Part shown: piece after piece, positions 15,458 to 51,095 of the stretch
Layout: each line of letters starts with the position of its first letter
Numbering within the stretch: the stretch's first letter is position 1
From: Sporomusaceae bacterium
GTDB lineage: Bacteria > Bacillota > Negativicutes > UBA1444
NCBI GenBank assembly: GCA_018434355.1
Contig: JAHDPL010000031.1
Span: 567-64,566 of the forward strand
Direction of reading: 5' to 3'
DNA length: 64,000 nt
Translations under genes and position numbers: made by a program
The notes under the pieces: generated by a model
What the model was told of the DNA's origin: nothing
Databases searched by the model: none
Seen by the model: only the letters and a program-made list of their open reading frames with translations

Positions 15458-15717
15458 AAAGTTGTCAAACCGCAAAAGGAACCAGAGAGTAGAGGAGCGA
15501 GTAACATTAGTAACGCCGGCGAGAGGGACATCGCTGACCCGGCGCGAAAGGGTGGTCGCCGAAGCGTGGAATGCGTCCGACGTTCCAGGCTGGGTGCGCA
15601 TCGAACAGGTGCGTGACTGTCACCGAAGTTGGTGAAGCGCTATCTCATGAAGCGGCAAACACGATTCGTGTCTTTGGATGCCGTACACCGGGAGAATGCT
15701 CGCCGGTGTTTTATTTT
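15458..15717 (+). promoter_or_regulatory. Structured 5' leader of about 260 nt ending in an intrinsic terminator; T-box-like, class unresolved
   Basis: AGAGAGTA at 15484-15491, AGTAAC-ATT-AGTAAC, AAAGGGTGGT at 15547-15556, several short hairpins, then the terminator at 15685-15717, about 35 nt before the livJ start. Confidence 0.45.
15685..15717 (+). terminator. Leader (attenuator) terminator upstream of livJ
   Basis: ACACCGGGAG...CTCGCCGGTGT stem followed by TTTTATTTT. Confidence 0.75.
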
Positions 15718-34100: not shown

Positions 34101-35417
34101 ATGCTTCATTCGATTTCGAGGTTCTTTGTAAAGTTAGTTCAACGCTATTTGCCGGATGCATACCTATTTGCGATCTTGTTGACATTTGCCGCGTTTTTGA
34201 TGGCCTGGAGTTTAACTGGAAAGACGTTCATGGCGCTGATAAAAATGTGGGGCGATGGTCTGTGGGGAATCCTAGCCTTTGCCATGCAAATGATTTTAAT
34301 TTTGGTGACAGGCCATTGTTTGGCAAGTAGCCGACCTGTCAAAAAGCTGCTGAGTTCATTGGCGTCTCTGCCGAAAAACACTTCCCAGGCCGTCATGTTG
34401 ACTTCATTCGTGAGTGGGCTCGCTTATTATCTGAACTGGGGGTTCGGGCTGATCGTCGCCGCCTTCTTTGCCCGCGAAATGGCTCGCAAAGTCAAGAACA
34501 TGGACTACGGTCTGGTTGTTGCGGCAGGCTACTCGGCTTATGTTTGCTGGCACGGCGGAATTTCGGGTTCGATTCCTCTTTCATTGGCAACAAAAGGGCA
34601 TGTTGTTGAGAAACTGACTGGCATTATTCCTGTGTCCCAGACGATCTTCACCTATTGGAATCTGATTATTGTCTGGACCTTGATTCTTACCGTTCCTTTG
34701 CTGATGAAACTGATGGTTCCGCATCCCGATGAAGTTAGGGTCGCTGACCCGGAAGCGCTGGTTGACCCGGAAGAAATTACGCCGCCAGCAAAACACACTC
34801 CGGCAACGTGGTTGGAAAACAGCGTTGCCATCAATATAATTTTTGGCCTGATGGGCGTGGCGTACATATTCAATTTTTTTGCGACTAATGGCTTTAACCT
34901 GACGTTAAACATCGTGATCTTCATATTTTTTATTGCCGGCGTTTTGTTCCACATGACCCCGATCAATTATGTCCGTGCGATGAATGAGGCGATAAAGGGC
35001 GCCGGCGGCATTGCACTTCAATTTCCGCTGTACGGCGGCATTCAGGGAATCATGGTTTCCTCCGGACTGGCGGTTATGATTGCAAACTGGTTCATTTCCT
35101 TCTCCACGCCGGCCACTTTCCCGCTATTCACTTTTTTGGCGGGCGGCGTAATCAATATGTTCATTCCATCCGGTGGCGGGCAATGGGTCGTGCAGGGTCC
35201 GATCAACATCCCGGCGGGAATTGCGCTGGGAGTTGATCCTGCCAAGGTCGCCATGAGCATTGCCTATGGAGATATGTGGACAAATATGATTCAACCATTT
35301 TGGGCGTTGCCGCTTTTGGGAATAGCAAAGCTAGGCGTGCGTGATATTATGGGATATTGCACAATTACGCTGATTTGGAGCGGGATTGTAATCTCGCTGG
35401 GACTGTTGATTCTGTAG
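34101..35417 (+). CDS. atoE: Short-chain fatty acid transporter (AtoE family), copy 1
   Basis: AtoE-type sequence (RYLPDAYLFAILLTF, WGDGLWGILAFAMQMILILVTGH). AAGGAGAG RBS. Paralogue of 49776-51095. Confidence 0.85.
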   Translation: MLHSISRFFVKLVQRYLPDAYLFAILLTFAAFLMAWSLTGKTFMALIKMWGDGLWGILAFAMQMILILVTGHCLASSRPVKKLLSSLASLPKNTSQAVMLTSFVSGLAYYLNWGFGLIVAAFFAREMARKVKNMDYGLVVAAGYSAYVCWHGGISGSIPLSLATKGHVVEKLTGIIPVSQTIFTYWNLIIVWTLILTVPLLMKLMVPHPDEVRVADPEALVDPEEITPPAKHTPATWLENSVAINIIFGLMGVAYIFNFFATNGFNLTLNIVIFIFFIAGVLFHMTPINYVRAMNEAIKGAGGIALQFPLYGGIQGIMVSSGLAVMIANWFISFSTPATFPLFTFLAGGVINMFIPSGGGQWVVQGPINIPAGIALGVDPAKVAMSIAYGDMWTNMIQPFWALPLLGIAKLGVRDIMGYCTITLIWSGIVISLGLLIL

Positions 35418-35520: not shown

Positions 35521-36516
35521 TTACTGTTGCGGCGCGATCATTTTCTCGATCTCGATCGACTTTTTCAGCATGCCGTTCTGCAGCAGGAAGTCCTGTGTCC
35601 GTTTCAGTTCGGCGATATCGGACGGCTTAATCGTCGGCGAGAAGTCGTACATCGGCAGTATCAGTTTGACTGTCTCGACCGGCAGGCCGGTTTCGGCGGC
35701 AGTCATCGCCAGCACTTCGTCAGGCTTGCTGCGCATATGCTCGATGGAGGCGCTGTGCGTATTCAGGAAGCGTTTCACCAGGTCCGGGTGTTTTTGCAAA
35801 AACTCGCCCCGCACGGCGGTGACGATCGTCGCCTCGACCAGGCCTTCGCCGGTGGTCAGGACCCGGGCACCGGCCTTCTCGGCGCGAATCGCATCCGGAC
35901 CGGCCGACAGGGCCGCATCGACGCTGCCGTTCATCAGGGCGGCGGCGGAACTGGGCAGATCCATTGATACGAACTGGATATCATCCGGTTTTAAACCCTC
36001 CTTGGCCAAGGCGGCCAAAATCAGCTGATGCAGGATGGTTCCCTTGGGGCCGGCGACTTTCTTTCCTTTCAAGTCGCTGACTTTTTGGATTTTATCGCCT
36101 TTGGTCAGCACGACGAACGCTTTGGGGGCGCGGCTGTAAATCGCGATGATTTTCAAATCGACGCCGTTGGCGGCGGCCAGAATCGCCGAAGTGCCGCCGA
36201 GGGCATGCGCGAAGTCCAGCGAACCGGCAGCCATCGCTTCGGTTTGTTTGGAACCGACGGTGATTTCCGGGTACTGCACGGCGATCTTGTCTTTGGCGAA
36301 TTCTTTTTCCAGCAGGCCGAGTTTCTTTTCGACGATCGACGGTACATTTAGCGGTGCTTTGACATAGGTCAGGCTAATCGACTTGGGGTTCGCGGCAGCC
36401 GGCTTGGCCGGCGCGGCAGGCGAGGCCGGAGCCGCAGGCGCGGAACCGCAACCGGCGGCAAAGGCGAACAGCAGCAGCGTCAATAGCCCGGTGAGAAGTT
36501 TGATCGTTTTGTTCAT
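35521..36516 (-). CDS. NitT/TauT-family (SsuA/TauA/NMT1-like) ABC substrate-binding lipoprotein
   Basis: ATG 36516 has a GGAGGTG RBS. Lipobox AAGCGS. The 5' part of the track ORF (to 36804) is out-of-frame overlap with the ATPase gene. Confidence 0.8.
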   Translation of the reverse strand: MNKTIKLLTGLLTLLLFAFAAGCGSAPAAPASPAAPAKPAAANPKSISLTYVKAPLNVPSIVEKKLGLLEKEFAKDKIAVQYPEITVGSKQTEAMAAGSLDFAHALGGTSAILAAANGVDLKIIAIYSRAPKAFVVLTKGDKIQKVSDLKGKKVAGPKGTILHQLILAALAKEGLKPDDIQFVSMDLPSSAAALMNGSVDAALSAGPDAIRAEKAGARVLTTGEGLVEATIVTAVRGEFLQKHPDLVKRFLNTHSASIEHMRSKPDEVLAMTAAETGLPVETVKLILPMYDFSPTIKPSDIAELKRTQDFLLQNGMLKKSIEIEKMIAPQQ

Positions 36517-36541
36517 TCGGAACACCTCCATTGTTGTTATG

Positions 36542-37291
36542 CTAGTTTTCCAGCGCCGCCAGGATTTCCTGTTGCCGCGCGAGCAGGGACGGATCGGTGG
36601 CCTGGCGGGGATAGGGATTGTCGATCGGCACCTCGCGCACGATTTGACCGGCTTCCATGACCAATACTTTCTGACCCAGAAAGACGGCCTCAGTGACATC
36701 GTGGGTGACGAACACGATGGTTTTGTGCTGGCTGAGGAACAGATCGACCAGTTCGCGTTGCAGTTTCTTGCGAGTGAAGTAATCGAGCGCGCCGAACGGC
36801 TCATCCATCAGGATCAGGTCGGGGTCGTAGCAAAGCGTGCGACCGAGCGAGACGCGCTGGGCCATGCCGCCGGACAGTTGCGAAGGATAGGCGTCGCGAA
36901 AGCCGGTCAGTCCCAGTTGTTCAAGCGTGCCAGTCACCTGCCGGTCGACCAGCGTCCGGTCCGGTTGCTTATCAAGTGCGAACGCCATGTTCTCGTAGAC
37001 AGTCAGCCAGGGCATCAAGCGAGGTTCCTGGAAGACAACGCCTACTTTGACGTCAGCGCCGCCGCTTCCGTCTCCAAGCCATTCGATGCTGCCGGCCGAT
37101 TTTTGCTCCAGGCCGCTGAGCAGCCGGAGCAGCGTTGTCTTGCCGCAGCCGCTGCGACCGACGATGACGGTGAAGCTGCCCGGCTCGATGGTGGTGGTGA
37201 CGTTGTCGACCGCTTCCAGTGGTTGTCCGGCCACCTGGTATTGTTTGGACAGTTGCGTCAGTTTAACCCCGGCCATAATCGGTCGATTCAC
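36542..37291 (-). CDS. NitT/TauT-family ABC ATPase (SsuB/TauB-like)
   Basis: GRSGCGKTT, LSGGMAQRVSLGRTL, LILMDEPFGALD. Confidence 0.85.
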   Translation of the reverse strand: MNRPIMAGVKLTQLSKQYQVAGQPLEAVDNVTTTIEPGSFTVIVGRSGCGKTTLLRLLSGLEQKSAGSIEWLGDGSGGADVKVGVVFQEPRLMPWLTVYENMAFALDKQPDRTLVDRQVTGTLEQLGLTGFRDAYPSQLSGGMAQRVSLGRTLCYDPDLILMDEPFGALDYFTRKKLQRELVDLFLSQHKTIVFVTHDVTEAVFLGQKVLVMEAGQIVREVPIDNPYPRQATDPSLLARQQEILAALEN

Positions 37292-38042
37292 CCACCTTCC
37301 AGGGAATCAGTCGCTGGGTCAGGGCAAAGAACAGCAGGTCGATCAGCGTTCCCATCACGCCGATCGTCAGGATGCCGATGATCACGAGGTCGGGTCGCGA
37401 CAGTTGCTGGGCGTCCAAAATCATGTAGCCGATGCCGGACGAGGCGGCGATCAGCTCTGCGCCGACCAGCGCCCGCCAGCTGTAGCCGAGGCCCAGTCGC
37501 AGGCCGACCATCACCGAGGGCAGCGACGCCGGTAACACGACCCGGCGGAAGATTTCACGCCGGGTCAGGCCGAACGAACGGGCGACCTCGACCAGTTTGC
37601 CGTCGCAACTGGCGACGCCGTGCAATGTGTTGAAAAAAATCGGAAAGAAGGTGGCCATGACCACGATCATCAGTTTTGGCAGCTCGCCGATACCGAACCA
37701 CAGGATAAGCATCGGGATCGTCGCCAGCGGCGGGATGTGCCTGAGCGCTTCCAATGTGATGTCAAAATAGGCCGACAGCCGCGAGAACATGCCAAGCAGC
37801 ACCGCCAGCGGAAACGCCAGCAGAAAAGCGGCGCAAAATCCGACAAACACCCGGTAGACGCTGGTGAGCAGATGCTTGGCCAGGCTGCCGTCGCTGCTGA
37901 TCTGCCAGAAGGCGGCGGCCACTTCGGCCGGCGGCGGGATGATATAGCTATTCCAGAGCGAAAAGTGCGAGCCGGCCAGCCAGGCCAGGCCGAGTACTGC
38001 CGGGATATATAGACCCTTGAGGGTATTTGCCGCACCGTTCAT
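37263..38042 (-). CDS. NitT/TauT-family ABC permease (SsuC/TauC-like)
   Basis: Six-TM BPD-type permease. ATG 38042 (MNGAANTLKG...) follows GGAAGGAG; the track ORF extends to 38108 across the leader terminator. Confidence 0.8.
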   Translation of the reverse strand: MNGAANTLKGLYIPAVLGLAWLAGSHFSLWNSYIIPPPAEVAAAFWQISSDGSLAKHLLTSVYRVFVGFCAAFLLAFPLAVLLGMFSRLSAYFDITLEALRHIPPLATIPMLILWFGIGELPKLMIVVMATFFPIFFNTLHGVASCDGKLVEVARSFGLTRREIFRRVVLPASLPSVMVGLRLGLGYSWRALVGAELIAASSGIGYMILDAQQLSRPDLVIIGILTIGVMGTLIDLLFFALTQRLIPWKVGESTDYGRG

Positions 38043-38077
38043 CGGGTTGCCGTCACTCCTTCCTGCCGTAATGCCGC

Positions 38078-38115
38078 AAAAAAATCTGCTTTGCGCTGAA
38101 AAACGCAAAGCAGAT
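38078..38115 (-). terminator. Leader terminator immediately upstream of the NitT/TauT-type ABC operon
   Basis: Minus strand: ATCTGCTTTGCG-TTTTTCAG-CGCAAAGCAGAT followed by TTTTTTT, about 35 nt before the permease ATG. Confidence 0.75.
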
Positions 38116-38207
38116 GGACTTCATGACACAATCGAGACAGTATGCGTCATAATGCACATCCCTTGGCGTCAGGCTAGGGCCCTGTTCCGCAGGTTGATTA
38201 TGTGAAT

Positions 38208-38236
38208 AGTATAACGCAGTGGAGAGAAATTATCAA
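38208..38236 (-). promoter_or_regulatory. Sigma-70-type promoter (TTGATA-17-TATACT) for the leader/ABC operon
   Basis: Minus strand: TTGATA (38236-38231), 17-nt spacer, TATACT (38213-38208). Confidence 0.6.
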
Positions 38237-38282
38237 TCGAATTATTCGGCGCGTTGCTAAGGACCCGCATTCCAGCGGGTCC

Positions 38283-40750: not shown

Positions 40751-41686
40751 ATGACAGGCACGCAGTCCTACACGCCGGAGGAACTGGCCAAAATCCTCAA
40801 GATCACCCGGTTCACGGTATATGAGATGATCAAGCGCGGCGATTTGCCTGCCTATCGTATCGGCCGCAAAGTCCGCGTCGAAGCCGCCGACCTGGACGCC
40901 TATATCAATAAATCAAAGGGGGCAGGTTTTTCTGTGCTCCCGAGCAATGAATCGACCGTTGCCTTGCCCCGAATCGGCCCGGAAGAGCTAGTCCTCTGTG
41001 GACAGGACGCTTCGCTCGACATTTTGACCCGCCACCTGCAAAAGGAATTGCCGCATGTCCGCTTGCTGCGCAACTACATCGGCAGCATCGACGGATTGCT
41101 GGCCCTCTACCACGGCAAAGCCAACGCGGTGACCGCCCATCTGTGGGACAGCGACAGCGACAGTTACAATACGCCGTATGTGCGCCGGTTGCTGCCGGGG
41201 CATCGCACCCTCATCATCAATCTGGTGTATCGCACCGAAGGGTTTTACGTGCATAAAGGCAATCCCAAGCAAATCCTGGACTGGGCCGACCTGTGCAAGC
41301 CGGCGGTCCGCTTCGTGAACCGGGAATGCGGTTCCGGCGCGCGGGTGCTGTTGGACGAGAAGCTGCGGATTCATAACATCGACCGTGACAAAATCAATGG
41401 ATACGCTGAAGAAGAAATGAGCCACCTGGCTGTTGCCAGCCGCGTGGCCCGTGGTGAGGCTGATGTTGGGTTGGGGATTGAAAAAGCGGCGCTGCAGGTG
41501 AAGGAACTGGATTTTGTGCCGCTGCAAACAGAGCGCTACGACCTGATTATCCGCCGCGAAGATGCGGAAAAGCCGATTTTCAGAACGCTGCTGACGGCGC
41601 TGCGTTCCCAGGCATTCCATAACGAACTGCGCGGCATGGGCGGTTACGACCTCAGCCGTACCGGCGAGATCATGGCCGAGACATAA
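40751..41686 (+). CDS. HTH (excisionase/MerR-like HTH_17) regulator fused to a periplasmic-binding-protein-like domain; putative molybdate-responsive regulator
   Basis: YTPEELAKILKITRFTVYEMIKRGDLPAYRIGRKVRV is an HTH_17 sequence, followed by a PBP-like domain. Divergent from modABC. ATG 40751 has a GGAGGGG RBS. Confidence 0.7.
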   Translation: MTGTQSYTPEELAKILKITRFTVYEMIKRGDLPAYRIGRKVRVEAADLDAYINKSKGAGFSVLPSNESTVALPRIGPEELVLCGQDASLDILTRHLQKELPHVRLLRNYIGSIDGLLALYHGKANAVTAHLWDSDSDSYNTPYVRRLLPGHRTLIINLVYRTEGFYVHKGNPKQILDWADLCKPAVRFVNRECGSGARVLLDEKLRIHNIDRDKINGYAEEEMSHLAVASRVARGEADVGLGIEKAALQVKELDFVPLQTERYDLIIRREDAEKPIFRTLLTALRSQAFHNELRGMGGYDLSRTGEIMAET

Positions 41687-41786
41687 TGTTCTCCAAAATT
41701 CTGAAAATTTGCGATGGACGAGAGAGATAAGAAGTGCTACACTGGAAACACGGAGAAATATTCTCTGATTTTAGGAGGTGGCATGG

Positions 41787-42200
41787 ATGAAAAAACTGAT
41801 GTCCGGATTGCTCCTCGCCAGCATGGTGTTGCTTGTTCTCGGTTCATTCCAGGTTGCATCGGCTGCTCCGTTCAAAGTAATGGGTAGCGATGACGAGTCC
41901 TATCTCGCAGACTCTCGCGGCATGACCCTATACATTTATTTGAAAGACAGTCCGGGCAAGGCCACTTGCGTCGGCGACTGCGTAAAGCGTTGGCCGATAT
42001 TCTATACTGAAAAAGTGATGGTGCCTGCTGGAATGGACGCGAAAGAATTTGGCGTCATCACCCATCCGAGCGGAGTCAAGCAGAATACTTTCCGCGGTTG
42101 GCCGCTGTATTACTTTGCCATGGACAAGATGGCCGGAGATACGATGGGGCAGGGCAGAAGCAACGTCTGGTTCGTCGTAAGGAACCCCGAATCCATTTAG
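41787..42200 (+). CDS. Secreted protein with Yx(FWY)xxD-type repeats (COG4315 / 'secreted repeat of unknown function')
   Basis: Signal peptide ending VASA-AP. Motifs GMTLYIYLKDSPGKATCVGDCVKRWP and FRGWPLYYFAMDKMAGDTMGQG. Confidence 0.7.
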   Translation: MKKLMSGLLLASMVLLVLGSFQVASAAPFKVMGSDDESYLADSRGMTLYIYLKDSPGKATCVGDCVKRWPIFYTEKVMVPAGMDAKEFGVITHPSGVKQNTFRGWPLYYFAMDKMAGDTMGQGRSNVWFVVRNPESI

Positions 42201-42233
42201 GAATCTGTAATCGTGCATAGTGGCAATAAAAAT

Positions 42234-42277
42234 AGCCCCTGGCGGTTCTAATCGGAGCAGCCGGGGGCTTTGTTTGA
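42234..42277. terminator. Bidirectional terminator between convergent genes
   Basis: AGCCCCTGGC...GCCGGGGGCT stem, TTTGTTT downstream and an A-run upstream. Confidence 0.75.
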
Positions 42278-42283
42278 TTGATG

Positions 42284-43030
42284 TTAAAGCGGAACCAGCT
42301 CCACTTGCCCCCAGGCGCCGAGCTGGTCGCCGAGGATGATGACGCAGCCGAGCAAACCAGGCAACGATGGCGCGACGGCCAGGGCGGTGGCGATGTCCTC
42401 GCCGGTCTGGACCAGGTTGCCGAGCGTGCTGGCATAGGCGTCAGCCAGGGCGGCCGAGGCGGCCAGCGTGACGGTGGCGTCGGTCTTGCCCAGACTGACC
42501 GACGGGCCGACCGTGCCGGCGGAGGTGCAGACGCCAAGCGGCATCTGTACGGGCGGGATGCGCAGGGCCAGCTGCTGTGACAGCGGCGAGTCACCGGCGT
42601 AGATGCCGATCAGGGCTTCGGTCTGCGTATGCAGGTAAATATCGCCGCCGTTTTCCACGATGATTTCGCGGGAGCCGGTCCGGCGGGCCAGCGACTTGCC
42701 GATCGTTTCGGCGAATGCGCCGGCGACCGCAGCCATCGGGCCGACCCCGGCCGGCGCAGCAGCAGCCGCCATCAGGCGGGCTATTTCCGGCGCGGAGGGC
42801 AGCAGCGTCACCGGACTGAAACTATGCAGAAAATCCGGCTGCTCTGTGATGTAGCGGTTCAGCTGTTGCCGCAGCAACATAACTTCTTGGCGGACCTGCT
42901 CCGGCAGACCGGCAAAAAAAGCGCCCGTATCGACGCCGATCCACAGGTCGGTTTCCAGCCAGGAAACCGAGAAGTAGGTCAGGCCGCTGCGGGCGGATTG
43001 CTTTCGGTAGGTTCGCGGTTCATACGGCAT
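42284..43030 (-). CDS. UPF0280/COG2122 (ApbE-like) protein, sulfide-assimilation-associated
   Basis: About 248 aa, with an N-terminus like UPF0280 proteins. Adjacent to the COG1900 and NIL-ferredoxin genes. Family call is by eye. Confidence 0.6.
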   Translation of the reverse strand: MPYEPRTYRKQSARSGLTYFSVSWLETDLWIGVDTGAFFAGLPEQVRQEVMLLRQQLNRYITEQPDFLHSFSPVTLLPSAPEIARLMAAAAAPAGVGPMAAVAGAFAETIGKSLARRTGSREIIVENGGDIYLHTQTEALIGIYAGDSPLSQQLALRIPPVQMPLGVCTSAGTVGPSVSLGKTDATVTLAASAALADAYASTLGNLVQTGEDIATALAVAPSLPGLLGCVIILGDQLGAWGQVELVPL

Positions 43031-43033
43031 GGT

Positions 43034-43441
43034 CTATTTGAACTCGGCCCGGATCAGCCGCAGCGGACAGGCGGGGACGCAGAGTCCGCACATCACGCAC
43101 TTTTCCGAGTCAAACACCAGCTGCCAGTTGTCGCGATCCAGCGACAGCGCGCCGGAAAGGCAGACGGCGGTGCAGGCGCCGCAGTGGATGCAGCGGTCCT
43201 GTTCGACCGTGATCTGCTGGTTCAGCGGTATGATCGTCACATTATGCGACTTCAGGAATGCCAGGCCCTGCTCCAGCTTGTCCGGTTCGGCTTCGACTTC
43301 CATCAACAAGCGGCCTTCCTGTTCGCCGCTGATCGTGGCCCGCAGGATGTTGACCATGAAATCGTAATCCTTGATCAGGTGATAGGTCAGCGGAATCTTC
43401 GAGCTTTCCGGCGGAAATTTGATCGTAAAGCGACAGCGCAT
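43034..43441 (-). CDS. NIL-domain/2x[4Fe-4S] ferredoxin protein
   Basis: NIL-like N-terminus (KIPLTYHLIKDYDFMVNILRATI), then CIHCGACTAVC and CVMCGLCVPACP. I chose ATG 43441. Confidence 0.75.
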   Translation of the reverse strand: MRCRFTIKFPPESSKIPLTYHLIKDYDFMVNILRATISGEQEGRLLMEVEAEPDKLEQGLAFLKSHNVTIIPLNQQITVEQDRCIHCGACTAVCLSGALSLDRDNWQLVFDSEKCVMCGLCVPACPLRLIRAEFK

Positions 43442-43442
43442 C

Positions 43443-44615
43443 TCAGCAGCCCTCCTTGACATTCAATGAGGTCAGCGACTTGCCGAGCGGCAATCGCTCT
43501 GCCGGTTCCTGCAGCAGGAACTGACCGGAACGGACCCATTCGCCGAGCAGGGCGGCGATCTGGCGGGCCTTGCGCATGCTGGACAGCGGCGCTGTGGGGA
43601 TGCGGCGGCCGTTTAGGTTGATATGACCGGATTTCAGCTCGGCGTAACTGACTTTGGCCAGCACCGGCCGAGCGCGGCGGGGAACGCCATAATCGACCAA
43701 TCCGGTATAGATGTCGGCATCGCTGACGGCCAGGCAGCGCACCATGTCGGCGTCCAACACCGGCATCGGCACGCCGATGCCGACAAACAGGCTGACGCCA
43801 TATTTTTCATAGACTGCGGCCTGGATATAGTCCGGGCTCATTTCTTTCAGGTTGCCGGTTACGCTGAGGGTGGCTGCGCCGCCAAGCGGTACGCCGTTGG
43901 GCAGGCGCTCGCGGGCCGAATTGTGCTGGGTGCCGTGGCCGGCCACGTAGCCGACCGCACCGCCGAGGAAAATCCGCGTGCCGAGGCCGATCGTGCGGTA
44001 CTCGGGGTCATTGAGCAGCGGGCTGAGCGCGCCGGAGGTGGAGTAGGTCACGTTGGCCAGGTTGGGCAGCAACACGCCCATGTAGGTGTAAAGCGTTTCC
44101 GCCGAAGAATTGACGGCTGCCGCGTAATTTTGGTAAGCGTTGCGCGGGTTGAACAGAATCGCCTCATTGATTTCGGCCAGCGTGATGTCGCTTTCCCATT
44201 CGCGCAGAGGGTAACAGTCCGTGCCGCTGCCGACCGCTTCCAGATGGACGGAGCGGCCTTCCAGCAACTCCTGGATCACATGCGCGCCGCCGTAGGTTTG
44301 GCCTGGTTCGCGGTCTTCGGCTTCCTCGGTGGCGCCGAGATAGGCGTCGACGGCTGCCAGGCCGGCATAGGCCGACACGCCGTTCAGCCAGACTTTTTTC
44401 ATCCGGATCGGCGGGTCGCTGTGACCAAAATTCAAAAACACGCCGGAAGAACACATCGGGCCGAAGGTGGCGGTCGTGACCACGTCGACGGTCTGAGCGA
44501 CTTTTTCCGCGCCCTGCTCGGCCACCATCGGGATGATTTCCTCGGCGGTGACGACTACCGCCTGGCCGGCGCGGATCTTGGCGTTGATTTCTTCATAGGA
44601 CTTGCGAATCGCCAT
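43443..44615 (-). CDS. COG1900/DUF39 homocysteine-biosynthesis protein
   Basis: DUF39-type sequence (VDVVTTATFGPMCSSGVFLNFGHSDPPIRM, LNGVSAYAGLAAVDAYLGAT). Confidence 0.75.
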   Translation of the reverse strand: MAIRKSYEEINAKIRAGQAVVVTAEEIIPMVAEQGAEKVAQTVDVVTTATFGPMCSSGVFLNFGHSDPPIRMKKVWLNGVSAYAGLAAVDAYLGATEEAEDREPGQTYGGAHVIQELLEGRSVHLEAVGSGTDCYPLREWESDITLAEINEAILFNPRNAYQNYAAAVNSSAETLYTYMGVLLPNLANVTYSTSGALSPLLNDPEYRTIGLGTRIFLGGAVGYVAGHGTQHNSARERLPNGVPLGGAATLSVTGNLKEMSPDYIQAAVYEKYGVSLFVGIGVPMPVLDADMVRCLAVSDADIYTGLVDYGVPRRARPVLAKVSYAELKSGHINLNGRRIPTAPLSSMRKARQIAALLGEWVRSGQFLLQEPAERLPLGKSLTSLNVKEGC

Positions 44616-45061
44616 TACCAGTAGAACCCCGGAACGTCGCCGGTCGCCGCGTCGACGGGAGCGGCGGTTGCGTCGCCGTTTACGATTCGGGCGGCCCGCT
44701 CCAGGTTATCGACCTTGATGACGACCCGGGCCTCGTTGGCCGAGGTCGCGGCAAACGCGTACACATACTCGACATTGATGCCGGCTGCGCTGAGGCTTTC
44801 CATCTTTTCCAGCAGGCCGCCCGGCGTATCGGCGACCGTCATGGTGAGCACCGGCGTGGCTTTTACGGCGTAGCCGGCGCCGCGCAGGATGCGCTCGACC
44901 TTGGCCGGATCGTTGACAATCATCCGCAGGATGCCGAAGTCGGCGGTGTCGGCGACCGACAGGGCCCGCAGGTTGATGGCGTGTTCTTTCAAGACGCCGA
45001 GGACTTCCGCCAGGGTTCCCGGGCGGTTTTCGACGAATACGGAGATTTGTTGAATGATCAT
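44615..45061 (-). CDS. ACT-domain protein (tandem ACT)
   Basis: ISVFVENRPGTLAEVLGVLKEHAINL is an ACT motif. Its stop overlaps the start of the COG1900 gene (TAATG). Confidence 0.8.
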   Translation of the reverse strand: MIIQQISVFVENRPGTLAEVLGVLKEHAINLRALSVADTADFGILRMIVNDPAKVERILRGAGYAVKATPVLTMTVADTPGGLLEKMESLSAAGINVEYVYAFAATSANEARVVIKVDNLERAARIVNGDATAAPVDAATGDVPGFYW

Positions 45062-45079
45062 GGCGTTTCCCTCCCTATG

Positions 45080-46378
45080 TTATATCATACGTTTGTCGAT
45101 TACCCGCTTGGCTTTGCCTTCACTGCGTTCGATCGCTTTGGGGCTGACCAGGCGGACTTTGGCGCTGACGCTGAGCGCGCTGGCCAGTTCCGCTTCTATT
45201 TTATGCTCCAACACTTCCAGGCGGCGGATCTCGTCGGAGAACATGTTTTCGGTCATCTCGACCAGCACAGTCAGGTTGTCCAGGTTATCGGCCCGGTCGA
45301 CGATCAGCTGGTAGTGGGGCGAGGTCTCACCCAGTCCAAGCAGCACGCTTTCGACCTGCGACGGGAACACGTTGACGCCGCGGATGATCAGCATATCGTC
45401 GCTGCGACCGAGCACCTTGCTCATCCGAATCAGCGTCCGACCGCAGTCGCAGGGGGCGGAGTCGAGCACAGCCAGGTCGCGGGTGCGGTAGCGCAGCATC
45501 GGCATGCCTTCTTTGGTCAGGGTGGTCAGCACCAGCTCGCCCTTCTCGCCGTGCGGCAGGATTTGGCCGCTGACCGGGTCGATGATTTCGGCGTAGAAAT
45601 GGTCTTCGTTGATGTGCAGGCCGTTTTGGCAGGGACATTCGCTGGCCACGCCGGGGCCGATGATCTCGCTGAGGCCGTAGATATCAAACGCCTTGATGCC
45701 GAGTGCTTTTTCAATTTCACCTCGCATCCGCTCCGACCAGGGTTCGGCGCCGAACACGCCGGCTTTGAGTGTGAGGTCCTGCGGCGATAAGCCCATCTCT
45801 TTCATCGTTTCGGCGATATACAGCGCATAGGACGGGGTGCAGGCGAGCAGCGTGGTGCCGAAGTCCTTCATCAACATGATCTGTCGTTGCGTGTTGCCGC
45901 TGGAGACCGGAATGACCGAGGCGCCGACCGCTTCCGCGCCGTAATGCACGCCCAGTCCGCCGGTGAACAGGCCATAGCCGTAGGCGACCTGGATGAACGA
46001 CTGTTTGCTGGCTCCGGCCGCCGTCAAGGTGCGGGCCATGACTTCCGACCAGATGCCGAGGTCGCGGCTGGTGTAGCCGACGACGGTATGTTTGCCGGTG
46101 GTGCCGCTGGACGCGTGCAACCGGACGATTTCCGCCAGCGGGACCGCGAACAGACCGTATGGATAGTTGTCGCGCATGTCCTGTTTGGTGATGAACGGAA
46201 GTTTGCCGATGTCTTCGATTGAACCGACCTCGTCCGGCAACAGGCCGGCTTTTTGCAAAGACTCCCGGTAAAACGGCACTTGCCGGTAAACCCGCCTCAC
46301 CTGTTGAATCAAGCGTGCGGACTGCAGCTCCGCCATCTGCTGACGGTCCATGGTCTCCATCGGTTTGTTCCAATACAA
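45080..46378 (-). CDS. paaK: Phenylacetate-CoA ligase family (PaaK-like) adenylate-forming enzyme
   Basis: [15 protein letters not shown] motif and PaaK-like N-terminus [18 protein letters not shown]. Start uncertain: TTG 46378, ATG 46360 or ATG 46423. Confidence 0.8.
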
Positions 46379-46555
46379 AATGAAAGCCCCCCATCTTACC
46401 TTGCTACACGAATAGTTCCCCACGGGGATGGTCGATGTATACAGTATGTTATTTGCAGTAATTATAACAGTCCACTGTTAACCGTGCAAGAAAACTGGGC
46501 CGGCTTTGGCGCTGCGGGAAGGAAAAAGCCGTCCGGATGTGAAAATTATCATAGT

Positions 46556-48046
46556 ATGTTAAACACAAGTTTTCGAGCCAGGCTTTTATTGCTGACCATA
46601 CTGCTGGGCGCGCTGCCGGTGTTGGCATCGAGCCTGTTCATCACGCTGCGGACCGAACAGGCGCTGGTCTGGGAGAAGCAGCAAAAGCTGTTCGGCATTA
46701 CCCGAGTGCTCGACCAGTATCTGCAAAGCAGCTATGATGGGTTGCTGGCGCAAAGCAGCCGCAGCGACTGGGGTCGCGAGGAAAAAATCGCGTTCCTCAA
46801 CCGCGCCCTGGCCCGCTACACCGACGAAATTGCCGCCGCTTATCCGGGGGTTGGCGTCGGATATTACTCCAAACAGCTGGACGCAATCGTGACCTACGGG
46901 CCGTCCTCGGTGTACGGCCATACGGTGGGGATACCGATCAGCCAGGACCATCAGGGCCGCCTGGTCATGGAATCGGGAGAGGATCGGGTGCAGGAAGGCG
47001 CGCTGGTGCGGGGCCGGATCATGAACGCGATGCATCCGATCGTGCGCGAAGGCGAGATTATCGGCTATATCTGGGCCAACGAACTGACCGAGGACATCCA
47101 GTCGCAAGTGGGCGAAATGAAGAAAAGCATTTACATCGCCAGCGTGATCGGCCTGCTTGTCGGCCTGTTCGGCGTGGCGCTGATCGTCGACAATCTGACC
47201 GCCGGTATCAACATGATCAAAAAAGGCGTGTTTCATCTGCAGGACGACCTGGACTACCGGCTGCCCAAACTGCCGGCCGAACTGGGCGAAATTTCGCTGG
47301 CGGTCAACCGGCTGGGCGATGAACTGCTGGCGAAACGACAGCTGGAGGCGCAGGTGCAACGCGCCGAGCGGCTGGCGGCGGTGGGCGAGATGGCGGCGGG
47401 CCTGGCCCATGAAGTGCGCAACCCGCTGATGTCGATCCGCGGTTTTGCCCAGTTGCTGCAAGAAGACAACATCAACCGCAGCCAAAAGGAATACCTGGAG
47501 ATCATCGTGCGGGAAACCGAGCGGATGAACGCCCTGATCGAACAACTGCTCTACTATGCCCGGCCGGTAGTCAACCGGGTCGACAACGTCGAAATCAATG
47601 CCGTCGTGCAGAATGTGAAAAAACTGGTGGAATCGCAGACCAAGGCGAAAAACATCCAGGTCGTCACCCGGTTGAAAAAAGACCTGCCGCCGGTAGCCTG
47701 CGACGCCGAACAGTTGAAGCAGGTGCTGTTGAACATCGTAATCAACGCGATCCAGTCGATCGAAACAGACGGCCGAATCCGCATTGCCAGCGCGTATTTG
47801 CCGGAACAACAACGAGTGGAACTGAGGATAGAAGATAACGGACAGGGGATTCCGCCTGCTCATCACGAACGAATTTTTGACCCTTTCTTCACGACAAAGG
47901 AACAGGGCACCGGGCTGGGACTGTCGGTGGCGTTCCGGTTGATGGAGACTTGGGGCGGTACGATCCACGTAGAGTCGGAGCCGGGGGCGGGCAGTTCGTT
48001 CGTATTGAGTTTTCCGGCGGGAATGGTTGAGGAGGACAAGGCTTGA
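46556..48046 (+). CDS. Sensor histidine kinase (AtoS/NtrB-like: TM, sensor, HAMP, HisKA, HATPase)
   Basis: H-box AAGLAHEVRNPL, N-box NIVINAIQS, G-boxes EDNGQGI and GTGLGLSV. I chose ATG 46556; the track ORF starts at 46253. Confidence 0.85.
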   Translation: MLNTSFRARLLLLTILLGALPVLASSLFITLRTEQALVWEKQQKLFGITRVLDQYLQSSYDGLLAQSSRSDWGREEKIAFLNRALARYTDEIAAAYPGVGVGYYSKQLDAIVTYGPSSVYGHTVGIPISQDHQGRLVMESGEDRVQEGALVRGRIMNAMHPIVREGEIIGYIWANELTEDIQSQVGEMKKSIYIASVIGLLVGLFGVALIVDNLTAGINMIKKGVFHLQDDLDYRLPKLPAELGEISLAVNRLGDELLAKRQLEAQVQRAERLAAVGEMAAGLAHEVRNPLMSIRGFAQLLQEDNINRSQKEYLEIIVRETERMNALIEQLLYYARPVVNRVDNVEINAVVQNVKKLVESQTKAKNIQVVTRLKKDLPPVACDAEQLKQVLLNIVINAIQSIETDGRIRIASAYLPEQQRVELRIEDNGQGIPPAHHERIFDPFFTTKEQGTGLGLSVAFRLMETWGGTIHVESEPGAGSSFVLSFPAGMVEEDKA

Positions 48047-49443
48047 AACAGACGGAACGGATCCTGATTGTCGATGATGAATTGAATGTGCGGCACTTGC
48101 TGAGCGAGGTCGTGCGCAAGGCCGGCTATGAACCGCATCAGGCCGAGAACGGCCTGGAAGGCGTGGAAAAATGCCGTCTGCTGAAACCGGAAGTCGTGCT
48201 GATGGACCTGCGGATGCCGGTGATGGAAGGCATGGAGGCGTTTGCGATCATCCATGAGGAAATGCCGGAAGTCCAGGTCGTTCTATTGACCGCCTTCGGC
48301 AATGTCGGCATCGCGATGGAGGCGATGAAACGCGGCGCCTTCGACTACCTGGTGAAGCCGGCCAATGTGGCGGAAGTGCGGACGGTGATCGAACGGGCGC
48401 TGGCGGTGAGCAAACAGCAGGCGGAAAGTCTGCTCAACGGCGAATCGGGTCTGAAAAGCGAGCCGGACAACCGGATCGTCGGCTGTAGCGCAGTGATGCA
48501 GAATTTGTTCAAATCGGTAGGGCGGGTGGCCCAGAGCAACGCGACGGTGCTGATCTCCGGCGAGAGCGGCAGCGGCAAGGAAGTGATCGCCAAGGCGATT
48601 CACGAGAACAGTCTGCGCAAGGACCAGCCGTTCGTGCGGATCGATTGCGGTTCGATCCCGGAAGGGCTGATGGAAAGCGAACTGTTCGGCCACGAGAAAG
48701 GCGCGTTCACCGGTGCGATCGCCGCCAAGCCCGGCAAGTTCGAAGTCGCCTCCGGCGGCACGCTGTTTATCGACGAGGTGGGCGACCTACCGCTACCGCT
48801 GCAGGTGAAGCTGCTGCGGGCGATTCAGGAGCGTGAGTTCGAGCGGGTGGGCGGCAATGCGGTCTTGCGGATGGATGTGCGGATCATCGCGGCGACCAAT
48901 CGCAACCTGCCGGAGATGGTGGAGCAGGGGCGGTTCCGCGAAGACCTGTTTTATCGGCTGAACGTGGTGCCGCTGCATGTGCCTGCCTTGCGCGAGCGGG
49001 CCGAAGACATCCCGCTGCTGGTGGATTACTTCATTAAAAAGGCGGCCCGCGCCGCCGGCTGCATGACGCCGCTCGTGACCCAGGAAGCGCGCGAACTACT
49101 GCTGCGATACTCCTGGCCCGGCAATGTCCGCGAACTGGCCAACGTGCTGGAACGGGCCGTGGTGATGTCCAACGGCGTCATCGACCTGCCTGACGTTTCG
49201 GGGATTGCGAATCCGCTGCTGACCAGTACGCCAAGGGTGGAAAAAAGTGAAGAGATCGTAGTTCCCTTTGCCGGCACCCTGCGCGAGATGACGCACTGCC
49301 TGGAGCGGGAAATCATCATCCGGACACTGAAGAAACACGGTGGCAACCGGATGCGCAGCGCGCAGGCGCTCGACATCAGCCGCCGTTCGTTGTTGTACAA
49401 ACTGGAAGAGCATGGCCTGGGCGAACGCGAAGAAAAAGAGTGA
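48043..49443 (+). CDS. Sigma-54-dependent response regulator (AtoC/NtrC family)
   Basis: Receiver domain (ILIVDDE...VLMDLRMP), [24 protein letters not shown]-terminal HTH. 4-nt overlap with the kinase gene. Confidence 0.9.
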
Positions 49444-49775: not shown

Positions 49776-51095
49776 ATGTTACATGCGATGTCACGATTTT
49801 TTGTCGCCATCGTCCAGCGCTACCTTCCCGATGCGTATCTGTTCGCAGTCATCCTGACCTTCATCGCGTTCGCCGCCGCCCTGGCGCTCACCGGCAAAGG
49901 CTTCATGGACCTTATTATCATGTGGGGCAACGGACTTTATGGTATTCTTGCTTTCGCCATGCAAATGATTCTGATTCTGGTTACTGGACACGCGCTCGCC
50001 TCCAGCAAGCCGATCAAAAAATTCCTCACCAGCCTGGCTTCGATTCCCAGCAATGGCGCTCAAGCCGCTATGATGAACTGCTTCGCCGTTGGCGTGGCCA
50101 GTTTCTTCAACTGGGGCTTCGGCTTGGTCGTCGGCGCGCTCTTGGCGCGTGAACTGGCGAAAAAAGTTAAAAACATGGACTATGCCTTCGTCGTGGCAGC
50201 CGGTTACTCCGGTTTCGTCATCTGGCACGGCGGCATCTCCGGCTCGATTCCGCTGGCGGTTGCCACCAAAGGACATCTGGTCGAAAAACTGACCGGCATC
50301 ATCCCAACCACCGCGACGATCTTCTCCAGCTGGAACCTGATCATCACTTGGACCATCATCATCACCCTGCCGATTCTGTTCAAACTGATGACGCCTCCGG
50401 ACTCGGAAGTGCGCGCAGTTGACCCGGCATTGCTGGTTGAACCGGAGCCGCCTGCGGCGCCGAAAGAACAAACCTTGGCCACGATCCTGGAAAACAGCGT
50501 GATCATCAACATGGCCTTCGGCGCGATGGGCGTGCTGTATCTCGGCAACTACTTCATGAAAAACGGCATGGGCAACCTGTCGCTGAATATCGTGATCATG
50601 GTGTTCTTCATCGCCGGCGTTATCCTGCACATCACCCCGATCAACTATGTGCGCGCCGTCAATGAGGCGATCAAAGGCGCCGGCGGCATTGCGCTGCAGT
50701 TCCCGCTGTACGGCGGCATCCAGGGGATCATGGTGTCCTCCGGCCTGGCGGCGATCATCGCCAAATGGTTCATCTCTTTCTCGACTGCTTATACGTTCCC
50801 GCTGTTCACCTTTATCGCCGGCGGCGTAATCAACTTCTTCGTACCGTCCGGCGGTGGCCAGTGGATCGTGCAAGGCCCGATCAACATCCCGGCCGGCCTG
50901 GCGCTCGGCGTAGATCCGGCCAAAGTGGCGATGTCGATCGCCTACGGCGACCAATGGACCAACATGATCCAGCCGTTCTGGGCGCTGCCGCTGCTCGGCA
51001 TCGCACAACTGGGCGTGCGCGATATCATGGGCTACTGCTGCATGACTCTCATCTGGTCCGGCATCATCATGGCAGCCGGTTTGCTGCTGCTGTAA
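49776..51095 (+). CDS. atoE: Short-chain fatty acid transporter (AtoE family), copy 2
   Basis: Collinear with copy 1, about two-thirds to three-quarters identical by eye. GAGGAGG RBS. Confidence 0.85.
   Translation: MLHAMSRFFVAIVQRYLPDAYLFAVILTFIAFAAALALTGKGFMDLIIMWGNGLYGILAFAMQMILILVTGHALASSKPIKKFLTSLASIPSNGAQAAMMNCFAVGVASFFNWGFGLVVGALLARELAKKVKNMDYAFVVAAGYSGFVIWHGGISGSIPLAVATKGHLVEKLTGIIPTTATIFSSWNLIITWTIIITLPILFKLMTPPDSEVRAVDPALLVEPEPPAAPKEQTLATILENSVIINMAFGAMGVLYLGNYFMKNGMGNLSLNIVIMVFFIAGVILHITPINYVRAVNEAIKGAGGIALQFPLYGGIQGIMVSSGLAAIIAKWFISFSTAYTFPLFTFIAGGVINFFVPSGGGQWIVQGPINIPAGLALGVDPAKVAMSIAYGDQWTNMIQPFWALPLLGIAQLGVRDIMGYCCMTLIWSGIIMAAGLLLL

Follow-up and report, generated by a model that had tools for sequence, protein, structure and literature searches.

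Why do genes of homocysteine biosynthesis stand directly behind those of a PaaK-type acid--CoA ligase and a small ACT protein? The question is raised by a five-gene unit in a 64,000-nucleotide (nt) stretch of DNA (the window, i.e., the whole stretch analyzed here) from contig JAHDPL010000031.1 of the Sporomusaceae assembly GCA_018434355.1. The source is a Negativicutes metagenome-assembled genome from wastewater with a marker-count completeness of 100% (code name G000). In reading order the unit encodes a PaaK-type ligase, the tandem-ACT protein ACT_8, a COG1900/DUF39 (HcyBio) protein, a NIL-ferredoxin, and a COG2122 protein; the last three genes are called the trio below. We favor, with a probability of roughly 0.6, the reading that two amino-acid-anabolic modules came to be co-transcribed and co-expressed by a single lineage-specific fusion and that they share no chemistry. 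This reading is preferred because either partner functions alone in close relatives and because the fusion was a single event.

In the proposed mechanism, COG1900a and NIL-ferredoxin would form homocysteine from aspartate semialdehyde and sulfide, helped by COG2122, and the homocysteine would feed a MetH-type methionine synthase. The PaaK-type ligase would activate an aryl- or branched-chain acid by forming the CoA ester, and the small tandem-ACT protein presumably senses an amino acid. All five genes would most likely be transcribed from the PaaK promoter, with a TAATG overlap giving translational coupling.

Distribution and Origin of the Linkage

Linkage was surveyed in COG1900 loci of species-representative genomes (the best 80, of which 76 lie outside the window's family), in nine other Negativicutes loci, and in a sample of 201 Negativicutes genomes. 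The window's order is the same as its family and comprises 13 species genomes in two genera. Nearly all of the 80 best loci carry the trio, and an ACT or PaaK gene stands upstream in only four of them, all in the window's own family. PaaK-ACT was found with none of the 85 trio loci outside the order (76/76 non-family loci and 9/9 other Negativicutes loci lack it). Within the order, the fusion is present in five of the 13 genomes (G000, G004, G007, G008, and G001), and HcyBio follows ACT in each. The contig of G001 begins inside the 3' end of PaaK, where 30 of 31 residues are the same as in the window PaaK C-terminus. The linkage first described from the window is thus not peculiar to its genome, and among the loci examined it is confined to the window's order.

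HcyBio was not found by hidden Markov model (HMM) search in G002, G003, G005, G009, G010, and G011, although these genomes retain PaaK-ACT. In these trio-less sisters PaaK is 87-90% and ACT_8 74-85% identical to the window proteins. Among the 201 Negativicutes genomes, HcyBio occurs in 14 and ACT_8 in 87; six genomes outside the family have both, with the genes far apart or on separate contigs. In a tree of 87 COG1900 proteins the family forms one clade (support 0.999) that is sister to Lucifera. This monophyly indicates that the fusion arose once.

Synteny locates the junctions of the fusion. In G005, PaaK-ACT is directly followed by the promoter and leader of an operon for an SsuCBA-like ATP-binding cassette (ABC) transporter. 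G007 has PaaK-ACT and the trio, and the same ssu promoter lies 6 nt past the COG2122 stop codon. In the window genome a terminator follows the trio, and an inserted block (lipoprotein, ModE-like regulator, and modABC) separates it from the same ssu operon. The trio is a cassette that fits exactly in between the stop codon of ACT and the promoter that comes next, and this position makes it most likely that all five genes are on the PaaK transcript. Presence of the trio in both genera suggests ancestral linkage followed by loss in one subclade; insertion is the alternative.

The spacer between PaaK and ACT in G004 (L101, 1115-1500) contains a repeat of about 370 nt that resembles a miniature inverted-repeat transposable element (MITE) and has terminal inverted repeats, and the locus is intact. 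Related copies with 72-78% identity occur on contigs C18, C51, C43, and C19 of the window genome.

Organization and Transcription of the Five-Gene Unit

The five open reading frames are co-directional on the minus strand and closely packed, with junctions of 18, -1, 1, and 3 nt (Table 1). The 18-nt gap between PaaK and ACT holds a GGGAGGG ribosome-binding site, as read from the sequence, and the ACT stop codon and the COG1900 start codon overlap as TAATG. NIL-ferredoxin begins 1 nt after the TGA of COG1900, with a AAGGAGGG ribosome-binding site ahead of the 43441 start; an alternative upstream ATG at 43462 is possible. A 3-nt gap separates NIL-ferredoxin and COG2122. Direct reading of the sequence confirmed the gene order, gaps, and TAATG overlap of the original prediction, and HMM searches upheld its five family assignments.

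Both boundaries of the unit can be recognized. Upstream lies a 177-nt divergent intergenic region that contains TTGCAC-17-TATAAT; on its other side are genes for an AtoS/AtoC-like two-component system and for an AtoE-like transporter. G004 and G007, two sister genomes with the trio, keep this promoter block upstream of PaaK, and the PaaK leader has no Rfam family match. Downstream, a hairpin and a T-run are followed by a convergent Lipoprotein_15 gene at 41778-42200. Within the unit no consensus promoter or credible terminator was seen, and the sequence scan found neither between PaaK-ACT and the COG1900 genes. No riboswitch was found inside the unit in Rfam searches (41500-47000 at E<=1; the whole window at gathering score).

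Table 1. Features of the five-gene unit and ykkC-fold elements linked to PaaK in other loci (window positions, or positions in the named locus).
Feature	Position	Strand	Evidence or remark
PaaK-type aryl/acyl-acid--CoA ligase, 432 aa, TTG start	45080..46378	-	PF00501 (AMP-binding) + PF14535 (AMP-binding_C_2)
Stand-alone tandem-ACT protein ACT_8, 148 aa	44615..45061	-	PF19571, 96 bits (gathering score 23.5)
COG1900a/DUF39 (HcyBio), predicted L-aspartate-semialdehyde sulfurtransferase catalytic subunit, 390 aa	43443..44615	-	PF01837, 509 bits
NIL-domain 2x[4Fe-4S] ferredoxin, 135 aa from ATG at 43441	43034..43441	-	PF09383 (55.5 bits) + Fer4 families
COG2122/UPF0280 (ApbE-like) protein, 248 aa	42284..43030	-	NF003323, 282.5 bits (cut-off 271)
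Sigma-70-like promoter TTGCAC-17 nt-TATAAT	46461..46489	-	About 80 nt 5' of PaaK start codon; putative function, read from sequence
Terminator-like hairpin (AGCCCCCGG...CCAGGGGCT), then ATTTTTATT	42225..42270	-	Sequence reading
PaaK-linked ykkC-fold element, G009	L106 2871-2964		
PaaK-linked ykkC-fold element, G003	L104 174-268		
PaaK-linked ykkC-fold element, G001	L110 746-840		
PaaK-linked ykkC-fold element	L159 30-131		
PaaK-linked ykkC-fold element	L163 4-102		
PaaK-linked ykkC-fold element	L165 29-128		
PaaK-linked ykkC-fold element	L157 3285-3383		

Transcript evidence came from four RNA-library runs, available as assembled contigs only, with 90-99% identity to the unit and partly from relatives. 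These contigs cover all five genes and bridge the PaaK/ACT, COG1900/NIL-ferredoxin, and NIL-ferredoxin/COG2122 junctions. Maxima of depth over PaaK add up contigs of other organisms and were left out of account, as were the habitats of low-share runs. The simplest model is that transcription reads through from the PaaK promoter, and we infer that the five genes are most likely co-transcribed.

Homocysteine Biosynthesis Genes

The trio is the known route to homocysteine from aspartate semialdehyde and sulfide, with activity in this organism predicted from family membership. The HcyBio protein matches PF01837 over its full length (positions 1-349 of 349) above the gathering score, and its score against TIGR03287 (MMP16/COG1900d) is 142 bits (cut-off 364), so it is not MMP16. 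The L-aspartate-semialdehyde sulfurtransferase (abbreviated L-ASST) of Methanosarcina contains two cysteines that are nearly universal, Cys54 and Cys131 by the numbering of MA1821, as well as a CBS domain at its C-terminus (PMC12068725). All 87 aligned homologues share Cys55 and Cys134 of the window COG1900 protein; these residues lie at about the positions of Cys54 and Cys131, a correspondence with MA1821 by position only. HMM search of the window COG1900 protein found HcyBio as the only domain and no CBS domain; bacterial members are not defined by having one. Sequence search returned no solved structure for COG1900.

The ferredoxin has an N-terminal NIL domain followed by two CX2CX2CX3C motifs (CIHCGACTAVC and CVMCGLCVPAC). 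The COG2122 protein also matches PDB 2O34 (125 bits), and its gene comes after that of NIL-ferredoxin in the majority of 89 COG1900 loci. The pathway was genetically demonstrated in Desulfovibrio vulgaris and Methanosarcina acetivorans; in D. vulgaris, the DUF39, NIL-ferredoxin, and COG2122 genes are all required for homocysteine synthesis, and homoserine is not an intermediate (PMC5764234). Family matches and the published genetics (PMC5764234) support the original prediction in naming these as sulfide-dependent homocysteine genes. Its view of the pathway as a methanogen specialty that goes unrecognized in bacteria did not hold, since the D. vulgaris study had already shown it (PMC5764234) and the Pfam name of PF01837 is now HcyBio.

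A genome search for classical routes found neither MetA nor MetX in the window genome. MetE was likewise not found in this genome, and a MetH-like gene is present. HcyBio is single copy. One Cys_Met_Meta_PP enzyme is encoded on contig C43; it is nearest to methionine gamma-lyase and scores below every cut-off. Because MetA and MetX were not found in a genome with 100% completeness and there is one HcyBio gene, the trio is probably the only de novo homocysteine source of the window genome. The genome is one more bacterial case of probable dependence on the DUF39 pathway alone for homocysteine.

Other genomes of the order have a MetA-like gene (415-440 bits in G007, G005, G003, and G001), including the trio-bearing G007 and G001. 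In G009, MetA, MetX, and the trio were all not found, and this species may be a methionine auxotroph.

The PaaK-Type Ligase and ACT_8

The ligase has an adenylate-forming core and a short PaaK-type C-terminal domain. It matches the Burkholderia PaaK1 structure 2Y27 at 450 bits, with the P-loop SSGTTGK and the lysine of the C-terminal GKAKRV aligned. Its score against the TIGR02155 equivalog model is 581.3 bits (cut-off 646.3), and it is therefore filed as PaaK-type, with its substrate unproven. It is the sole PaaK-type gene in the window genome and lies away from both iorAB loci. No paa genes were seen among its annotated neighbors, the only part of the genome inspected for them.

ACT_8 is encoded once in the window genome and matches PDB 2F06 (93.6 bits). 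Its gene lies directly 3' of PaaK in all 29 Negativicutes loci, and the pair is regarded as an autonomous module with wide conservation. The association of PaaK-ACT with indolepyruvate metabolism in other anaerobes, as originally proposed, was found in some cases: iorAB adjoins the pair in 3 of the 12 larger loci examined. In other loci an ilvN-ilvC-leuABCD-ilvB operon, headed by a ykkC-like element and a T-box, is directly 3' of PaaK-ACT.

A ykkC-fold element also lies directly 5' of PaaK in six loci of other families, with scores of 36-62 bits, below the RF00442 (Guanidine-I) threshold of 63. It precedes PaaK in G003, G009, G010, G002, and G001 of the window's family as well, and it is absent (lost) in the window subclade. 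The PaaK-linked and ilv-linked elements have a common invariant core, with 5'/3' pairing and a GCGGAAAGUU tail. A tandem of ykkC subtype 2a and a T-box before branched-chain amino acid genes is the signature of guanosine tetraphosphate (ppGpp) riboswitches (PMC6003355). The PaaK-linked subtype-2-like element is probably a ppGpp-class riboswitch, its subtype being assigned by the core shared with the T-box-paired ilv-leu elements and not by discriminating nucleotides. The term "phenylacetate" was not found in the ykkC/ppGpp riboswitch literature searched, and the association of this element with PaaK-ACT may be unreported.

The setting of PaaK-ACT, next to iorAB or to ilv-leu genes and in many cases preceded by a ykkC-like element, points to amino acid anabolism. 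From the shared element core and the published ppGpp signature (PMC6003355), we infer that PaaK-ACT is usually a starvation-induced amino-acid-anabolic module. Literature searches returned nothing on PaaK with an ACT domain and indolepyruvate and nothing specific on reductive carboxylation, so the physiological role proposed here is based on gene context and general knowledge. Judged by what is known of rumen bacteria and methanogens, PaaK-ACT would activate aryl or branched acids that then undergo ferredoxin-dependent reductive carboxylation. The comparison places a poorly understood gene pair of anaerobes in amino acid anabolism and gives a testable lead on its purpose.

A T-box leader was observed on contig C11 of G001 (L108, 627-881), about 600 nt upstream of a second PaaK paralogue that is 61% identical and has no ACT gene beside it.

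Riboswitch Control of the Trio

Outside the family, a SAM-I (S-adenosylmethionine) riboswitch, or S-box, heads the trio in 14 of 17 tested loci (6/8 in one set and 8/9 in another). At the window operon no match to RF00162 was found with the search ranges and thresholds given above. The nearest trios outside the family (Lucifera/L016, L134, and L015) likewise have no S-box, and its loss may therefore be older than the fusion. Only two S-box-like elements were detected by nhmmer in the window genome, before metNIQ (C48:77452-77556) and before metK (C50:250414-250513). By this pattern, methionine uptake and SAM synthesis are predicted to be SAM-controlled in the window genome, and homocysteine synthesis is not. 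Regulation of the pathway appears to have been rewired by lineage, with an S-box in most Bacillota, nothing recognizable in Lucifera, and a PaaK-ACT operon here.

Alternative Explanations

Some observations weigh against the co-expression of two separate modules. The ACT/COG1900 junction is crossed by one RNA contig, by 19 nt only, and we did not count it as proof of one transcript. The TAATG coupling and the CBS-less COG1900 protein suit a relationship between ACT and COG1900 equally well. The Cys_Met_Meta_PP enzyme on C43 could offer a minor alternative route to homocysteine.

The strongest rival holds that the trio has its own promoter hidden in the ACT or PaaK coding sequence and that adjacency arose neutrally when the cassette was inserted and brings no co-regulation. 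However, no sigma-70-like site was found in the 840 nt ahead of COG1900, relaxed criteria included. The ACT-COG1900 spacer also leaves little room for a promoter, at 0 nt in genus 1 and, in genus 2, just 27 nt that include a ribosome-binding site. Such neutral adjacency would fit the patchy, mobile-cassette-like occurrence of the trio (14 of 201 Negativicutes genomes), the undisrupted G004 locus with its MITE-like repeat between PaaK and ACT, and the unconvincing bridging of the ACT/COG1900 junction by RNA contigs. It agrees less well with the terminators. A strong one ends PaaK-ACT in the trio-less G009, which indicates that PaaK-ACT is a complete transcription unit by itself, whereas trio-bearing genomes have no terminator after ACT. 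We regard a hidden promoter as unlikely.

A role for ACT_8 as the amino-acid-sensing regulatory subunit of the homocysteine enzyme, replacing the CBS domains of methanogens and the SAM riboswitch of Bacillota, is still more doubtful. ACT_8 always follows PaaK (29/29 loci) and is kept at 74-85% identity in sister species where COG1900 was not found. No ACT gene accompanies any of the 85 non-family trio loci, and the closest trios lacking an S-box (Lucifera and L015) do without ACT. In favor of such a role are the TAATG overlap of ACT and COG1900, the lack of CBS where methanogen L-ASST has it (PMC12068725), and the lack of an S-box at this operon in a genome with S-boxes before metNIQ and metK.

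A related and slightly more speculative idea is that ACT_8 in this order is a shared amino acid sensor that gates both the PaaK ligase and the CBS-less L-ASST. The ancestral five-gene unit would then have been under a ppGpp-type ykkC riboswitch, as G001 (genus 2) suggests. If this were true, homocysteine synthesis would answer to the stringent response and to a sensor protein, and not to SAM.

It is very improbable that the ligase performs an undescribed ATP-dependent activation in homocysteine or methionine formation (e.g., of a pathway intermediate, or of 3-methylthiopropionate for reductive carboxylation), because elsewhere the trio alone suffices by genetic evidence (PMC5764234), the match of the ligase to authentic PaaK reaches 450 bits with the catalytic motifs aligned, its orthologues persist at 89-90% identity in trio-less genomes, and no trio locus outside the family includes a ligase, even though the genome's only PaaK-type gene lies in this operon and not beside either iorAB locus and falls below the TIGR02155 equivalog cut-off.

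The original prediction had offered ACT control of the pathway or an activation step by the ligase as possible meanings of the arrangement. Neither gained comparative support, since the partners separate in sister species and other lineages and the fusion is single. Co-expression of two anabolic modules is preferred, and a new enzymatic step is not indicated.

Comparison with Known Systems

A close likeness is to L-ASST of M. acetivorans (MA1821, COG1900a-CBS, and MA1822, NIL-ferredoxin) with MA1715 (COG2122). The same three families are involved, and the two cysteines are similarly placed. The MA1822-type partner has a NIL domain and two clusters, as does the window ferredoxin. In contrast to M. 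acetivorans, the window COG1900 protein has no C-terminal CBS pair, and the trio lies in one operon behind PaaK-ACT, whereas MA1715 is encoded elsewhere. D. vulgaris Miyazaki F (DvMF_1464, DvMF_0262, and DvMF_0044) has the same pathway in a bacterial genome without classical MetA/MetX routes (PMC5764234). Its genes are dispersed, judging by locus tags, whereas those of the window are contiguous and translationally packed.

S-box-controlled COG1900-NIL-ferredoxin-COG2122 operons of Bacillota have identical trio order and spacing. Unlike these, the window operon has no S-box, and the trio forms the promoter-distal end of a larger unit. The iorAB-paaK-ACT and paaK-ACT/ilv-leu clusters of anaerobes share with the window the PaaK-ACT_8 bicistron, a gap of about 20 nt, and a setting of amino acid biosynthesis. 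In the window, however, the downstream partner is the homocysteine trio, and the ykkC subtype-2-like leader of relatives is missing.

Neighboring Elements

The AtoS/AtoC-like sigma-54 two-component system and two AtoE/short-chain fatty acid (SCFA) transporter genes flank the operon (window 34101-35417, 46556-49443, and 49776-51095, all on the plus strand). An SCFA transporter is likewise near PaaK-ACT in G009. The flanking transporters may serve uptake of acids that are activated by the ligase.

A TGTATACA palindrome lies 3' of the -10 box in both subclades and was considered as a candidate operator. The genome has 27 copies (about 46 expected from composition), and many of them sit in TATAATGTATACAA promoter-like contexts. 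As the palindrome is not enriched, the operator idea was dropped.

At window 38086-38250 on the minus strand, upstream of SsuC/B/A-like genes (35521-38108), there is a conserved promoter (TTGATAATTTTTCTCC-N6-TATAAT), after which come a leader and an intrinsic terminator. The leader core is nearly invariant (CCUG[A/C]GGAA[C/A]AGGG-loop-[G/A]CCUGACGCCAAGGGAUG) and is accompanied by a covarying hairpin. BLAST found 22 copies, which occur in all 13 genomes of the order (including L195 1455-1610), and none in 188 other Negativicutes. The leader precedes either a sulfonate-type ABC importer or a gene for a TM1266-like "iron-only hydrogenase system regulator" with an aspartase-like gene. It has no Rfam family match and is a candidate new cis-regulatory RNA. 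The window also contains a lysine riboswitch at 15482-15650 on the plus strand (103.5 bits).

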